This document shows positions 19,542 through 22,912 of a stretch of DNA of 64,000 nucleotides, piece by piece (position 1 is the stretch's first letter; each line of letters starts with the position of its first letter). This stretch comes from a bacterium (lineage in GTDB: Bacteria > Zhuqueibacterota > Zhuqueibacteria > Residuimicrobiales > Krinioviventaceae), in NCBI GenBank assembly GCA_963675755.2, contig CAXXMD010000002.1, positions 1,024,001-1,088,000 of the forward strand, read 5' to 3'. A program made the position numbers and the translations under genes. Below the pieces are notes generated by a model. The model saw only the letters and a program-made list of their open reading frames with translations, was not told where the DNA came from and made no database searches.

Positions 19542-19596
19542 AACTAACCATTTATTTTTATATAGTGACTATACAATTAAGTTTTATACATTATTA

Positions 19597-19623
19597 TTAT
19601 CGGTAAAACCCGTATAAACTTGA
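19597..19623 (-). promoter_or_regulatory. Sigma28 promoter for motAB-fliL
   Basis: Minus strand TCAA-N15-ACCGATAA versus consensus TAAA-N15-GCCGATAA, directly after the flgE terminator. Confidence 0.75.
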
Positions 19624-19626
19624 ATT

Positions 19627-19662
19627 AAAAGAAAACGGGGGCGAGCTTTTTTACTCACCCCC
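19627..19662 (-). terminator. Rho-independent terminator after flgE
   Basis: Minus strand GGGGGTGAG-loop-CTCGCCCCC followed by GTTTTCTTTT. Confidence 0.85.
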
Positions 19663-19670
19663 TATTTATA

Positions 19671-21707
19671 TTATCTTGTTTTCAATTGAACAATTTCATT
19701 CAACAAGGTATCACTGGTTGTGATAATACGTGAATTTGCCTGAAAACCTCTCTGAGAAATAATCATATTTGCAAATTCTTCAGCAAGGTCAACATTAGAC
19801 ATTTCAAGATTTTCAGGTGCTATTTCAGCCTGAATAGTTGAACCTGCCCAACCACGGACCGGCATACCACTATTGGCGCCAACCTGAAAAACATTTTCAC
19901 CAACTTGGTCAAAACCCTGAGGATTATTAACAGTTGCTACAGCAACCTGGGCGATTGTCTGACTTACACCATTGGTGAAATGTCCGGTAATTGTTCCGGT
20001 TTCATCAAATGAAAAGTCATAAAGTTCACCCATTCCGTAACCATCCTGCATACTGGGTACAGCAGAGGTAGTGCTGTTAAACTGGGTCAAGCCATTAAAG
20101 TAACCTGCTTCACCAGGATCAAGAACAACTTCCATTGTGGCAGAACCATCACCTGGTTCAAAAGTTAATGGATTACCATCCTCAATCTCAATTGCTGACA
20201 AACTACCATCAGGATTAAACTTACAATAGCCTCTGTTACCGGCGGTTGGTTCAATTGTACCATCATCAATAGTACATTCCCATTTCCACAAGTCAGGGTC
20301 AGTCAATGTTGAAATATTGGTGAACTCGATTTCCAATGTATGAGGCGTACCTTTGGAATCATAAATCAAAATACTTGTAGTATGTACACCTGCATCCTGA
20401 CCTTCAATTTGAGTATTGAATGTAGGAGTAGAAACAGAGTTGTAATTCTGGTCTGTCATACTGATAGCACAAGTACGCTCAGAAACACCAGCTTCTGCAT
20501 CTGATACAGTTACATTACCAGCAGAATCGATTGTAACTTCGGCACCAGGGAAAACGGAATCAATTGCTGCTAACAAATCACCAACAGTACTGGGGTTACC
20601 CATACCGTCAGCGTCAGCCTGGTAAACAAATACACCGGATTTACCATAACCATCTTTATCAGCACCGTTGATATTGATTTCATCACCATCAACAAGAACA
20701 CCGTCAAAAAATGGAACATCATTCAACGAAGTTGTTGCAGTTGTTCCATATTCAGTCCCGGTTATACCCAAAGTTGAACCTGCATCTGAAAAAGTACCGC
20801 CAATAGTAATAAAAGTATCAGCACCACCGGTATCAGTTGTACGGATTCTGAGATAATCCATATCATTTTCTGTTATAGATTCAGCAACAATTTCACTAGT
20901 TAACTGGCGTGTTGAATCTATCTGATTATTGATTTCAGCTACCAATTCTTTCAATGTACCATAAGTACCATTTGTAAGTGTCAAAGTAGCAGTTAAACTT
21001 TCATCAGCATCATCATCAATAGAAATCTCTATCTGATTATTTGTATCATCAATTACAATACCATTGGGATCAGCAGCCAAAACATCTGCCCAGGAATTCA
21101 CACTGGTTACTGCGGCATTCTTGGAATAGTCAGCAGCAAGAACTTTGGAAACTTTACTGGTATCAGAATTCAAATTACCTGTTAATTGAACCTGAGAAGT
21201 GGCCTGTGCAGGCGCTTTTTGGCCAAAAGGTAAAGCGATACTCGAAATATCTGTAGAATTGGTTAAATCGCCTGTAGCATCGGCTGTACGTCCCTGTACA
21301 CGAAGACCGGTATTTCCATATACCAAATAACCGCTGCTGTCAATGGTAAAATTACCTGCACGGGTAAAGTATTCCTGTTCGCCATCGCTGAGTAAAAAGA
21401 ATGCATCTCCATCAATAGCGAGATCCAGACTGCTGCCTGTACTTTGAAAATCTCCCTGGGTAAAAAGTTTATCAATACTACCTATTGACATACCAATACC
21501 AACATATTGGGGATTCACACCACCTGTAGCTGAAGAAGGTTGAGAACCAATGGTAAGAGCTTGGGAAAGGTTTTCTTCGAAATTTACACGAGCTGCCTTG
21601 TAAGCAGTTGTGTTAACATTTGCAATATTATTACCAATTACGTCTAACTGGACTTGATGATTACGAAGTCCAGAGACCCCTGCGTATAATGAACGTAACA
21701 TTTTCAT
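19671..21707 (-). CDS. flgE: Flagellar hook protein FlgE, long form with acidic insertions
   Basis: MLRSLYAGVSGL..HQ..LDVIGNNIANVNT, DLAIDG, TRAGNF, LEMSNVDLAEEF..MIISQRGFQANS. Confidence 0.96.
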   Translation of the reverse strand: MKMLRSLYAGVSGLRNHQVQLDVIGNNIANVNTTAYKAARVNFEENLSQALTIGSQPSSATGGVNPQYVGIGMSIGSIDKLFTQGDFQSTGSSLDLAIDGDAFFLLSDGEQEYFTRAGNFTIDSSGYLVYGNTGLRVQGRTADATGDLTNSTDISSIALPFGQKAPAQATSQVQLTGNLNSDTSKVSKVLAADYSKNAAVTSVNSWADVLAADPNGIVIDDTNNQIEISIDDDADESLTATLTLTNGTYGTLKELVAEINNQIDSTRQLTSEIVAESITENDMDYLRIRTTDTGGADTFITIGGTFSDAGSTLGITGTEYGTTATTSLNDVPFFDGVLVDGDEININGADKDGYGKSGVFVYQADADGMGNPSTVGDLLAAIDSVFPGAEVTIDSAGNVTVSDAEAGVSERTCAISMTDQNYNSVSTPTFNTQIEGQDAGVHTTSILIYDSKGTPHTLEIEFTNISTLTDPDLWKWECTIDDGTIEPTAGNRGYCKFNPDGSLSAIEIEDGNPLTFEPGDGSATMEVVLDPGEAGYFNGLTQFNSTTSAVPSMQDGYGMGELYDFSFDETGTITGHFTNGVSQTIAQVAVATVNNPQGFDQVGENVFQVGANSGMPVRGWAGSTIQAEIAPENLEMSNVDLAEEFANMIISQRGFQANSRIITTSDTLLNEIVQLKTR

Positions 21708-21720
21708 ATCTCCTTAAATA

Positions 21721-21780
21721 GAGTTCTAAAACCGCATCTGTCATTCAGCGGTTTAGAGCCTCCCACTTGGGGTCCGGCCC
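21721..21780 (-). ncRNA. Candidate cis-regulatory two-hairpin RNA in the flgE 5' UTR
   Basis: GC-rich island in an AT-rich spacer; hairpins GGGCC-GGA-CC..GG-GA-GGCUC and UCUAAACCGC-UGAAUGACAGAU-GCGGUUUUAGA, just upstream of the AAGGAG RBS. Confidence 0.6.
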
Positions 21781-21792
21781 TTTTAATTCAAA

Positions 21793-22197
21793 TTAATTAA
21801 TTACTAGTGCACTATCGATATTTGTGAACACATTTTCACGTAAACCTTCACTGTCCATGGCAGTGATCACAGTTCGATTCGCAGCACTGACAACAAAGGC
21901 ATTGTTATCCATAAGAATCAGGGATTCATTTCCGCCTTTTTCAAGAATTTTGTCAATGCCGTTTTGCAATCGCATTCGGTCTTCATCAGATAATTGAATA
22001 TTCCTTTCCTGAATACGATTTTGCGCGTGTACGGAAAACTTTAGATCATCAGTCTGTTGACTGGTTTGTTGATCAAGAATTTCCTGAAAACTGGTTCCGA
22101 TTTGTGCCTGAGCATTAATACTTTTCTTAATTCGCTCAGCACCTGACGGTCCTCGGATACCAGAAATATTGTTTATGTTCTCAGGCAAAAAACTCAC
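21793..22197 (-). CDS. TIGR02530-family flagellar operon protein
   Basis: SFQEIL, LKFSVHAQNRIQERNI, KGGNESLILMD, NRTVITAMD, ENVFTNIDSA; between flgD and flgE; GTG start with GGAGG RBS. Confidence 0.9.
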   Translation of the reverse strand: MSFLPENINNISGIRGPSGAERIKKSINAQAQIGTSFQEILDQQTSQQTDDLKFSVHAQNRIQERNIQLSDEDRMRLQNGIDKILEKGGNESLILMDNNAFVVSAANRTVITAMDSEGLRENVFTNIDSALVIN

Positions 22198-22216
22198 CTC
22201 CTTTCAAAGATTTTTT

Positions 22217-22912
22217 TTATGATTCAGTATCTGTATTTTCTTCACTTTCTTCTGCTGCAACAATTTCAAGTACTTCACTGATAGAAATCTCTGCATCTCC
22301 GACCATAAAAGTTGGGGTGCCATCATTATAACGCAATCCAGTGACCGTTCCACGGAAAACGGGAACAAAATCAACCTTTTCACCACTGTCGTTATATGCT
22401 GCAACATCCATATAATAAACACCTTCGCTCACAGTACCACCACCTAAATTGGTACCATCCCAGGTTGCGGTTACATTTCCAGCATTCTGGTAATCCAAAT
22501 CAATTGTTTTAACCAGACTACCATCTTCAGTGTATATGGATACAGTTACATCTGAAGCATCTTCAGCTAGAGTAAATTCGACCTCTTTTTCACCACTTCC
22601 TGACCAAATGACAGAATCTGACTGGGCAAGAATATCTTTACCAATTACCGAAGACACTATAGAGTTATGCATTGACTGTGTCAGGTATGCATCTGTCTCA
22701 AGCTGTTCATTCACTGTATATAACTGTTCAAGTGAACTAAACTGTGCCAATTGGGCAACATACTCTGTGTTGTCCATAGGGTCTAAGGGATCCTGATATT
22801 TTAATTCAGTAACCATCAGGTTCAAAAAAGCATCTTTATCCATTTCACTGGATGCCGAGCTATCTGAATTTACACTGTATTCGTAATATGTACCAACCGA
22901 TGAAATTGGCAT
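22217..22912 (-). CDS. flgD: Hook capping protein FlgD
   Basis: DAFLNLMVTELKYQDPLDPMDNTEYVAQLAQFSSLEQ; Ig-like domain with WDGTN. Confidence 0.96.
   Translation of the reverse strand: MPISSVGTYYEYSVNSDSSASSEMDKDAFLNLMVTELKYQDPLDPMDNTEYVAQLAQFSSLEQLYTVNEQLETDAYLTQSMHNSIVSSVIGKDILAQSDSVIWSGSGEKEVEFTLAEDASDVTVSIYTEDGSLVKTIDLDYQNAGNVTATWDGTNLGGGTVSEGVYYMDVAAYNDSGEKVDFVPVFRGTVTGLRYNDGTPTFMVGDAEISISEVLEIVAAEESEENTDTES

Follow-up and report, generated by a model that had tools for sequence, protein, structure and literature searches.

An undescribed two-hairpin RNA motif in flgE leaders, with a strong genomic link to the flagellar gene TIGR02530

The flagellar hook consists of roughly a hundred copies of FlgE, whose gene is buried in a long operon, and FlgE is needed in far larger amounts than FlgD, the hook cap protein. 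To our knowledge, the setting of hook output outside the enteric models is largely unexplored. A flagellar locus on a 64,000-nucleotide (nt) stretch of bacterial DNA, referred to here as the window (positions 1,024,001 to 1,088,000 of contig CAXXMD010000002.1 in assembly GCA_963675755.2, from a member of the Zhuqueibacterota), raises this question in a concrete form. A small gene of the TIGR02530 family lies between flgD and flgE, and the spacer that separates it from flgE holds an element that can be folded into two hairpins. What is this element, and with which of its neighbours does it belong? An earlier reading of the window, made without database searches and called here the sequence-only reading, had proposed that the TIGR02530 protein may bind or cleave the spacer RNA to set the level or timing of hook synthesis. 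Comparison of loci and genomes confirms an undescribed and widespread RNA motif of flgE leaders that has a strong genomic link to TIGR02530.

A two-hairpin RNA downstream of TIGR02530

We assembled the main set of loci by scanning one genome per species with a 25-sequence protein alignment, keeping the best 80 of 573 relatives. By their record titles, these 80 loci come from Bacillota (Clostridia, Negativicutes and a metagenome-assembled genome (MAG) labelled Brevibacillus), Geobacteraceae, MAGs labelled 'Bacteroidota', Kryptoniota, Calditrichia, Cloacimonadota, Omnitrophota, Fibrobacterota, Eremiobacterota, Armatimonadota, Actinomycetota, Bdellovibrionota and Spirochaetia. A covariance model of the element (R1), built from 12 sequences, was run over 488,404 bases on both strands and gave 86 matches at E<=1. 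We found 84 of these where they are expected, on the gene's strand and just past the TIGR02530 gene: in 76 of the 80 loci, in 7 loci from relatives of the window's genome and in the window itself. The remaining two are weak strays (E 0.51 and 0.82). When the four loci lacking an R1 match were searched with a second model without filtering, one of them (L057) scored 30 bits, two carried degenerate copies (L068, 11.9 bits; L073, 12.5 bits) and one gave none (L089). Altogether, a clear copy of the motif is present in 77 of the 80 loci. Closer to the window, 8 of 41 genomes from its genus, family and order carry TIGR02530, and all 8 hold the two-hairpin element between the stop codon of that gene and the Shine-Dalgarno (SD) sequence of flgE, the hairpin-2 stem varying between genera by compensatory changes.

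Covariation was computed on the 58 best matches. In this alignment, which was fitted to the model in a way that favours structure, 93.7% of the paired cells can pair, compared with 72.1% for shuffled 3′ partners and 36-56% for partners slid by 1-3 columns. Fifteen of the 16 base pairs change on both sides (214 cells), and the covariation score is 0.631 compared with 0.211; none of 500 shuffles reached 0.631. Compensatory changes were observed at all 5 outer pairs and 3 of the 4 inner pairs of hairpin 1, and at all 6 core stem pairs of hairpin 2. The covariation of the stems is already visible in the raw sequences, before any fitting to the model. These comparisons indicate that the spacer element is a real, old, structured RNA, selected on its stems and on its unpaired nucleotides alike. 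Together with the strand specificity of the matches, the presence of G-U pairs, one of them in hairpin 1 of the window, points to the sense RNA. The sequence-only reading had anticipated a conserved, covarying element downstream of TIGR02530 genes, and the spacer consensus that it gave, GGCYGGACC..GGRAGGC..CYGCYGA, is indeed seen in related loci.

In the window, the full covariance-model match spans 21725-21782 on the minus strand (71 bits with R1 and 61.2 bits with a model termed R2) and shows the covariation described above. Hairpin 1 (21756-21780, minus strand), identified by sequence, fold and compensatory changes, has an outer stem of five pairs (GGGCC/GGCUC, one of them G-U), an internal loop in which GGA lies opposite a single A, and an inner stem of three pairs (CCC-CAAGU-GGG). 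Hairpin 2 (21729-21754, minus strand), identified by sequence and compensatory changes, consists of a 7-pair stem (AAACCGC/GCGGUUU) closed by the 12-nt loop UGAAUGACAGAU, for which the family consensus is NGAnnGAnnGAn. The SD sequence of flgE, recognised in the sequence as AAGGAG at 21710-21715 on the minus strand, lies 13 nt past the hairpin-2 stem. Both hairpins are part of the minimum-energy fold (ViennaRNA), and the string that the sequence-only reading had quoted as folding into two adjacent hairpins is present as quoted; it ends 9 nt before AAGGAG (21715-21710), close to the 8 nt given there. Folding energies are -20.5 kcal/mol for the 58-nt stretch (z -2.10; 8 of 200 shuffles equally good), with a z of -2.20 for a 101-nt stretch (3 of 200 shuffles equally good). 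The folding of this one sequence alone modestly beats chance, which is suggestive and too weak to carry the case by itself.

The motif is single-copy in its own 6.48-Mb genome, where R2 gives one match (61.2 bits), and on this ground we rejected a dispersed repeat or mobile element. An intrinsic terminator or attenuator was rejected as well, as a terminator scan calls none on the minus strand at the spacer. A UUUU run follows hairpin 2 only in the window, its congener and locus L001 and is absent in the remaining relatives; most loci hold an intercistronic element without a T-run.

Across the family, hairpin 1 follows the consensus (R)GGCY, GG-N, CC(YC)-loop-(GR)GG, R, RGCC(Y); the hairpins are separated by 1-8 nt, and hairpin 2 is a stem of 5-9 pairs of free sequence around N-GA-nn-GA-nn-GA-N. 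The GG of the hairpin-1 internal loop is unpaired in 58 of 58 sequences, with A (47), C (9) or U (2) as the third base. On its 3′ side, one purine stays unpaired (A in 44 sequences and G in 11), with AA in the other 3, and the apical part of the hairpin accepts insertions of up to ~30 nt. In the hairpin-2 loop, G2A3, G6A7 and G10A11 are invariant in all 55 sequences with a 12-nt loop, the other three sequences having another loop. Positions 1 and 12 of this loop vary freely by comparison (CC 12, CG 10, GA 8, UU 6, UG 5, UA 5, AU 3, others 6; n=55). The unpaired nucleotides of the motif are thus better conserved than its stems, the usual mark of a recognition surface and suggestive of one here.

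Tandem G.A/A.G pairs had been proposed for both hairpins by the sequence-only reading. Those of hairpin 1 cannot form, because its 3′ side offers one unpaired purine. In hairpin 2, the first and last GA of the loop could close the stem as tandem sheared pairs in the manner of a K-loop. Archaeal box C′/D′ K-loops, which are bound by L7Ae, resemble the hairpin-2 loop in two respects: the loop reads stem-N-GA-(6 nt)-GA-N-stem with both GA invariant, and position 1/12 is often a pyrimidine mismatch (CC in 12 and UU in 6 of 55). Unlike a K-loop, however, the hairpin-2 loop has an invariant central GA (G6A7) that a K-loop does not demand and that closure of this kind leaves unexplained. Additionally, position 1/12 is a Watson-Crick or wobble pair in 26 of the 55 sequences, and hairpin 1 is without tandem G.A pairs.

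No relevant family of Rfam 15 matched the window at 21400-22400 (E<=10), a set of 20 loci (gathering score) or a set of 12 loci (E<=5), in line with the expectation of the sequence-only reading that no described Rfam family would account for the element. A conserved structured RNA called Termite-flg lies in presumed 5′ untranslated regions, which we take to be those of flagellar genes. It is Rfam family RF01729 (PMC2864571), and it matched neither the window nor the 20 loci nor the 12 loci, which include Spirochaetia- and Fibrobacterota-labelled ones; our element is not the same family as the Rfam 15 model. A literature search found nothing on the RNA or on the function of the TIGR02530 protein, with the limit that a related motif absent from Rfam could be among the supplementary motif lists of Weinberg and colleagues from 2010 and 2017. 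PMC5737381 has neither 'flg' nor 'hook' in its main text, and Table 1 of a 2026 survey of flagellar genes gives 'Flagellar_put' as 'Function unknown' (PMC13277936).

Co-occurrence with TIGR02530 and position in the operon

Does the RNA follow the TIGR02530 gene or the flagellum? Among the 41 relatives, the RNA, TIGR02530 and FlgE_D2 share the same 8 genomes, with one RNA copy each, and a link to the gene cannot be separated there from a link to the flagellum. We also surveyed 151 genomes of the class that holds locus L076. In this sample the RNA is present in 62 genomes (one copy each), TIGR02530 in 69 (61 over the cut-off) and rod/hook genes (TIGR03506) in 113. All 62 RNA-positive genomes are TIGR02530-positive, and the filtered search gave no RNA match in any of the 44 flagellated genomes without the gene or of the 38 non-flagellated genomes. 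Seven TIGR02530-positive genomes lacked a filtered match; the motif was found in all of them by unfiltered search (20.1-39.1 bits), and six have a divergent, longer TIGR02530 protein whose reading frame enters hairpin 1. As a matching control we took 20 regions upstream of hook/rod genes from 18 flagellated, gene-negative genomes, 17 of these regions having flgD directly upstream. The best unfiltered score in the control regions was 6.9 bits (E 0.67), and the 17 flgD-flgE junctions without the gene show no trace of the RNA.

For a second sample we took 151 genomes from the phylum to which the Geomonas locus belongs. Five of them carry TIGR02530, and strong RNA matches (50-60 bits, adjoining the gene) were found in the same 5, compared with FlgE_D2 in 78. 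Weak matches were also observed in three TIGR02530-negative genomes (G240, 36.2 bits; G331, 30.7 bits; G291, 30.0 bits), inside long open frames in GC-rich DNA. Two of these genomes (G240 and G291) are FlgE_D2-positive, with the weak match and FlgE_D2 on separate contigs, and two of the three matches are without the GA loop; all three are probable chance hits. The co-occurrence of element and gene that the sequence-only reading had set out to be checked is therefore borne out by the 62 of 62 RNA-positive genomes and by gene-less junctions at or below 6.9 bits. The RNA is tied to TIGR02530 rather than to flagella or to flgE as such.

Two side observations concern these samples. The weak match in G240 (L129, G240:C15:72524-72585) keeps the loop CGACCGACUGAA without the hairpin-1 internal loop and is not fully explained. 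A divergent TIGR02530 subfamily was seen at loci L120-L127 (genomes G158, G183, G075, G171, G144, G050, G114 and G130), where the proteins score 60-73 bits, below the cut-off, in frames of 150-265 amino acids (aa). Its members carry VSxHAxxRMxERGI, which is nearer the DUF4258 consensus, and their stop codon lies inside the RNA motif, which keeps its usual two hairpins.

The order flgD-TIGR02530-RNA-flgE holds in 77 of the 80 loci, the exceptions being two contig ends and L079; the gene therefore sits between flgD and flgE in the window and in the fetched loci, as the sequence-only reading had stated. The model match starts a median of 7.5 nt past the stop codon of TIGR02530 (range -6 to 320; 74 loci) and ends a median of 31 nt before the flgE start (range 13 to 123; 71 loci). 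In the window, 10 nt separate the stop codon from the RNA. The motif directly adjoins the stop codon or overlaps with it in 29 of the 74 loci, so that a terminating ribosome must often melt hairpin 1, and in 38 of the 74 it begins at most 8 nt away. Among loci with a long spacer, five have the RNA close to flgE (L033, L041, L043, L067 and L085) and four have it close to the stop codon (L026, L050, L066 and L080), and with the loci split in this way, position alone does not tell which gene the RNA serves.

A genome labelled Anaerovibrio (G346) has two such loci. Its usual locus (L079, 2402-3171) carries flgD, TIGR02530 and the RNA (46.5 bits), followed by flbD-like, fliL-like and fliM-like genes, with no flgE. 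On another contig (L155, 1440-1824), flgE follows a shortened TIGR02530 paralogue (92 aa, N-terminal region missing) and a second RNA copy, which scores 24.5 bits, keeps hairpin 1 intact, has a degenerate hairpin 2 and ends 33 nt before flgE. The two loci indicate that flgE relocated in company with the RNA and the protein core, and that the gene and the RNA also persist without flgE.

A record named 'UNVERIFIED: Bacteriophage sp.' (MT835480.1; L133, 34633-40950), from a faecal sample, carries flgD-TIGR02530-RNA-flgE and looks like a bacterial flagellar operon. We rejected it as an independent phage test of the gene-RNA link, as it simply carries the usual four-part order. A TIGR02530 homologue has been reported in megaphage G (bioRxiv 10.1101/2024.12.16.628780); it was not recovered in our protein search.

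The remaining features of the window can now be placed. The minus-strand order is a 1421-aa open reading frame (ORF), flgD, the TIGR02530 gene, the spacer, flgE, a terminator-like hairpin and motA; a long flagellar operon runs along this strand. The TIGR02530 gene (22197-21793, minus strand) scores 109 bits against the NCBIfam model, for which the cut-off is 83.2, and 46.1 bits against PF12611 (Flagellar_put; cut-off 21.1), the latter at the protein C-terminus. Its real start is probably TTG at 22188, giving 131 aa, rather than GTG at 22197, giving 134 aa, because the GTG overlaps the SD sequence GGAGG and because the representative of a 98%-identical database cluster has 131 aa. The hook gene flgE (21701-19671, minus strand; listed as an ORF from 21707) is identified by the Pfam families Flg_bb_rod, FlgE_D2 and Flg_bbr_C and by the NCBIfam FlgEFG subfamily (260.5 bits). 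Its start is most likely ATG at 21701, two codons inside the listed ORF start at 21707, since the predicted N-terminus is then MLRS, as in homologues (MLRS or MMRS). Counted to the first ATG (21707), the spacer between TIGR02530 and flgE measures 85 nt; counted to the likelier start (21701), it measures 91 nt.

Upstream, flgD (22912-22217, minus strand), for the hook cap or hook assembly protein, is recognised by Pfam FlgD (84.8 bits) and FlgD_ig (62.2 bits); the NCBIfam FlgD models match too, with scores under their cut-offs. Directly upstream of flgD, the 1421-aa ORF (27193-22928, minus strand) is low-complexity, rich in Asn, Ser, Lys and Thr and unusually long, and it occupies the position of the hook-length protein FliK. 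On the other side, a hairpin with a T-run (19637-19662, minus strand; a 10-pair stem with 7 GC pairs, then GTTTTCTTTT) directly past flgE is terminator-like and marks flgE as the final gene of the transcription unit, before motA (19541-18753, minus strand). The interval between flgE and motA (19542-19670, minus strand) holds this strong hairpin and no flbD-like small gene, unlike L079.

The TIGR02530 protein

The family gave 1105 matches at E<=0.001 in a 90%-clustered collection. Its invariant residues are FSxHAxxRxxxRxI at the start of the core, K-G, N-(R)-T-V-x-T-A-x-D and a C-terminal NVFTNIDSA. AlphaFold2 predicts the full-length protein with a pLDDT of 79.1 and the N-terminal ~35 residues disordered, and the core with a pLDDT of 91.6 and a pTM of 0.81, as a compact alpha/beta domain of strand, helix, helix, three strands, short helix and strand. 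In the ESM Atlas, every cluster retrieved belongs to this flagellar family itself (scores 0.84-0.86). A sequence profile run against PDB chains gave a chance match only (E 3.6), and an inspection by eye for correlated changes between protein and RNA variants found none that is convincing.

The sequence-only reading had likened the protein to RelE and DUF4258 folds. The likeness to DUF4258 stands as a weak one. On the window protein, DUF4258 (PF14076) scores 12.2 bits against a gathering cut-off of 25 (E 0.24), and a PF14076 search of the window's genome at E<=1e-5 did not pick up the TIGR02530 gene; sub-threshold matches on the His/Arg helix (FSxHAxxRxxxRxI) were observed in 17 of 25 TIGR02530 members, the best with E 0.0055. 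Alignment of 40 TIGR02530 cores with 17 DUF4258 domains from relatives' genomes by hhalign gave a probability of 78.4% (E 1.7e-5, 53 columns), and the His of FSxHA aligns with the sole invariant His of the DUF4258 set. The likeness to RelE found no such footing: in a Foldseek search of the PDB no RelE, ParE or colicin entry was significant, a result that leaves a DUF4258 link open, as the PDB may hold no DUF4258 structure.

Both families are small alpha/beta domains that open with a (F/I)SxHAxxR..R.I helix bearing an invariant His. Unlike DUF4258, TIGR02530 has no His facing the second conserved His of the DUF4258 set, and its C-terminal NVFTNIDSA block is specific to it. Unlike a type II toxin-antitoxin pair, TIGR02530 has no antitoxin-like neighbour, flgD and flgE adjoining it in the window and in 77 of 80 loci. 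In the part of the literature that bears on this family, DUF4258 is placed among BECR-fold RNase toxin families with its target unknown (PMC11980606), and a 2026 preprint assigns it to a colicin-like branch (bioRxiv 10.64898/2026.08.28.747851).

Candidate roles of the RNA

The reading that we prefer, with a probability of about one half, is that the RNA is a flgE leader recognised by the TIGR02530 protein and that it controls flgE post-transcriptionally; that the protein binds it, we infer. In favour of this reading stand the covarying stems, the better-conserved unpaired nucleotides, the co-occurrence with the gene, the gene order, the two loci of G346 and the invariant His/Arg/Arg helix of the protein, which aligns with the sole invariant His of the DUF4258 set. 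The spacer RNA would act in cis as a structured leader on the flgE message, its two hairpins displaying the invariant unpaired GG (hairpin 1) and the three invariant GA (hairpin 2). The TIGR02530 protein, made from the gene just upstream, would bind this leader specifically, and protein bound 13-40 nt ahead of the ribosome-binding site would set hook-protein output from the polycistronic flagellar mRNA. This could happen by two routes. The bound protein may hinder or help 30S loading, the direction of the effect being conjectural, or the message may be cut such that flgE would gain its own stable transcript with a structured 5′ end.

Protein-read leaders of this kind are familiar. CsrA and FliW control the leader of the hag (flagellin) mRNA in B. 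subtilis, and in the HutP and TRAP leaders of Bacillus, as with FlbT on the Caulobacter flagellin leader, short purine repeats are read by a small protein. The element resembles the CsrA-FliW flagellin leaders in that a flagellar structural gene has a 5′ leader with conserved, hairpin-displayed purine motifs near its SD sequence, presumed to be read by a small dedicated protein from the flagellar regulon. Unlike those leaders, the RNA consists of two hairpins with GG and three GA, the target would be the hook and not the filament, and the candidate protein is TIGR02530 and not CsrA, for which, unlike CsrA-FliW, we know of no partner-switch component. With the HutP, TRAP and FlbT leaders it shares short, regularly spaced purine repeats, a dedicated small protein and a downstream gene that would be controlled. 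It differs from them in having GA every 4 nt inside a hairpin loop and in the TIGR02530 family being unrelated; we know of no oligomer of TIGR02530. CsrA-FliW control is described for the C. jejuni flaA leader as well (PMC4894983), and FlbT is listed as a flagellin regulator in Table 1 of PMC13277936. By these likenesses, the motif and the gene would belong to the known class of protein-read mRNA leaders.

Several observations weigh against recognition by TIGR02530. The gene and the RNA are adjacent, and one deletion removing both would give the same co-occurrence; the co-occurrence counts were also taken over related genomes, which are not independent samples. In 3 of the 80 loci (two labelled Armatimonadota, one Gaiellaceae) the gene is present with a degenerate motif (L068, L073) or none (L089). 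Genome G222 carries, in addition to a normal locus, a second RNA copy (42 bits; L132, G222:C24:1010-1066, minus strand) with no TIGR02530 or flgE nearby. This orphan copy lies just past an EF-hand-like, low-complexity ORF and before a terminator-like hairpin, and it may act in trans, serve as a decoy or be a relic. The protein itself adds further points. Its charge is not conserved (family pI median 8.2, range 4.8-10), and the window protein, with a pI of 4.8 and a net charge of -5, is unusually acidic for an RNA binder. The predicted disordered N-terminus would suit a regulator no better than it would a type III export substrate or chaperone. Foldseek against the PDB gave a best E of 0.69 for the full-length protein and 0.24 for the core, with TM <=0.34, and no solved RNase or RNA-binding fold, and the likeness to DUF4258 is weakly indicated, sub-threshold in Pfam and at 78% by hhalign.

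Different roles for the RNA can account for part of the same evidence. The one that survives best, though we consider it unlikely, makes the RNA a processing or stability element for general RNases or the ribosome, for example a 5′ stabiliser of flgE mRNA, with TIGR02530 an unrelated hook export or assembly factor that co-occurs by adjacency. It accommodates the demand for FlgE far above that for FlgD, an intercistronic element with no T-run in most loci, and a protein with a disordered N-terminus that is acidic in the window; adjacency alone can explain joint presence and absence. However, a plain stabiliser needs stems, not an invariant unpaired GG and three GA across phyla. The 17 gene-less flgD-flgE junctions, where the need for hook stoichiometry is identical, are without trace of the RNA (<=6.9 bits), and in G346 a copy of the protein core moved along with the RNA when flgE relocated.

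That the RNA serves the upstream gene is, in our judgement, rather improbable. As a 3′ element, it would sense or control the termination of TIGR02530 translation, including autoregulation or a coupling of flgE initiation to the terminating ribosome. The frequent contact of the motif with the stop codon (29 of 74 loci, and a start no more than 8 nt away in 38 of 74) speaks for this role, as do the ORF of the divergent subfamily that reads into hairpin 1 and the first G346 locus, which keeps gene and RNA without flgE. However, 5 loci place the RNA 82-320 nt past the stop codon and 39-47 nt from flgE, the gap is 10 nt in the window, and the relocated flgE of G346 also has an RNA copy.

A more daring form of the cleavage route, which we offer as speculation and hold to be improbable, takes TIGR02530 to be a domesticated BECR-type (DUF4258/colicin-like) endoribonuclease. 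It would read the hairpins with their GG and GA loop and cut its own polycistronic flagellar mRNA there, freeing a flgE transcript with a structured 5′ end. In many genomes the cut site would then lie at, or a few nt from, the stop codon of TIGR02530 itself, and hook-protein output would be uncoupled from the rest of the operon. The export-signal-like N-terminus could link the cytoplasmic level of the protein to the activity of the flagellar export gate.

Binding of the RNA by CsrA or a different global RNA-binding protein, with one site at the hairpin-1 GGA and a second at the GGA within the SD sequence, as in CsrA control of flagellin leaders, is distinctly doubtful. GGA does occur in the internal loop of hairpin 1 in 47 of 58 sequences, next to an SD sequence AAGGAG, and the window's genome has a csrA gene ~38 kb away, as have 59 of the 62 RNA-positive genomes of the class sample a csrA gene of their own, a point that also tells against TIGR02530 as the reader. 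However, the A of GGA is not conserved (GGC in 9 and GGU in 2 of 58), the three invariant GA have no place in the CsrA consensus, and 33 CsrA-positive genomes are without the RNA and 3 RNA-positive genomes without CsrA, the RNA tracking TIGR02530. The distribution of csrA by itself was not a discriminating feature.

A small-molecule riboswitch or SD-occluding switch with no dedicated protein is very improbable: it would suit the conserved unpaired nucleotides and the complementarity of GGAGGUC, the SD extension of many Bacillota-type loci, to the hairpin-1 5′ strand GACCUCC, which makes an alternative pairing possible, but the motif is very small and without a multi-helix junction or pocket-like architecture, SD pairing is impossible in the window's clade (GGACCCC; AAGGAG) and a poor fit in Geobacter-type loci, and a metabolite sensor gives no reason for a strict link to one protein gene. 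Occlusion of the SD sequence by the hairpin-1 5′ strand, suggestive in the Bacillota-type loci, was on the same grounds rejected as a general mechanism. The SD sequences of flgE are unusual in their own right. Their 3′ extensions are clade- and gene-specific (L010-L089), with GGAGGUC, GGAGGGU and GGAGGCA compared with the usual GGAGGUG. GGAGG is followed by UC in 20 of 59 flgE leaders, by GU in 12 and by the canonical UG in 1, compared with 7, 7 and 59, respectively, among 239 other SD-like sites of the same loci (Fisher 1.4e-10, over kin that are not independent). In Bacillota-type loci the SD-to-start spacer UCAUUUAUUAUG is conserved too.

Recognition of the flgE leader by TIGR02530 remains the reading that we prefer, and its meaning can be given in steps. 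At minimum, the element is an RNA family fit for addition to Rfam, and the genomic link supplies a concrete candidate function for a widespread flagellar gene. If the protein reads the RNA, the two would be a novel case of RNA recognition by a protein, and flagellar assembly would have a second checkpoint acting after transcription, next to CsrA-FliW. TIGR02530 might also illustrate how a nuclease-toxin fold can be put to use in housekeeping regulation, and, if the endoribonuclease proposal were true, hook synthesis would be governed by a checkpoint derived from a toxin.

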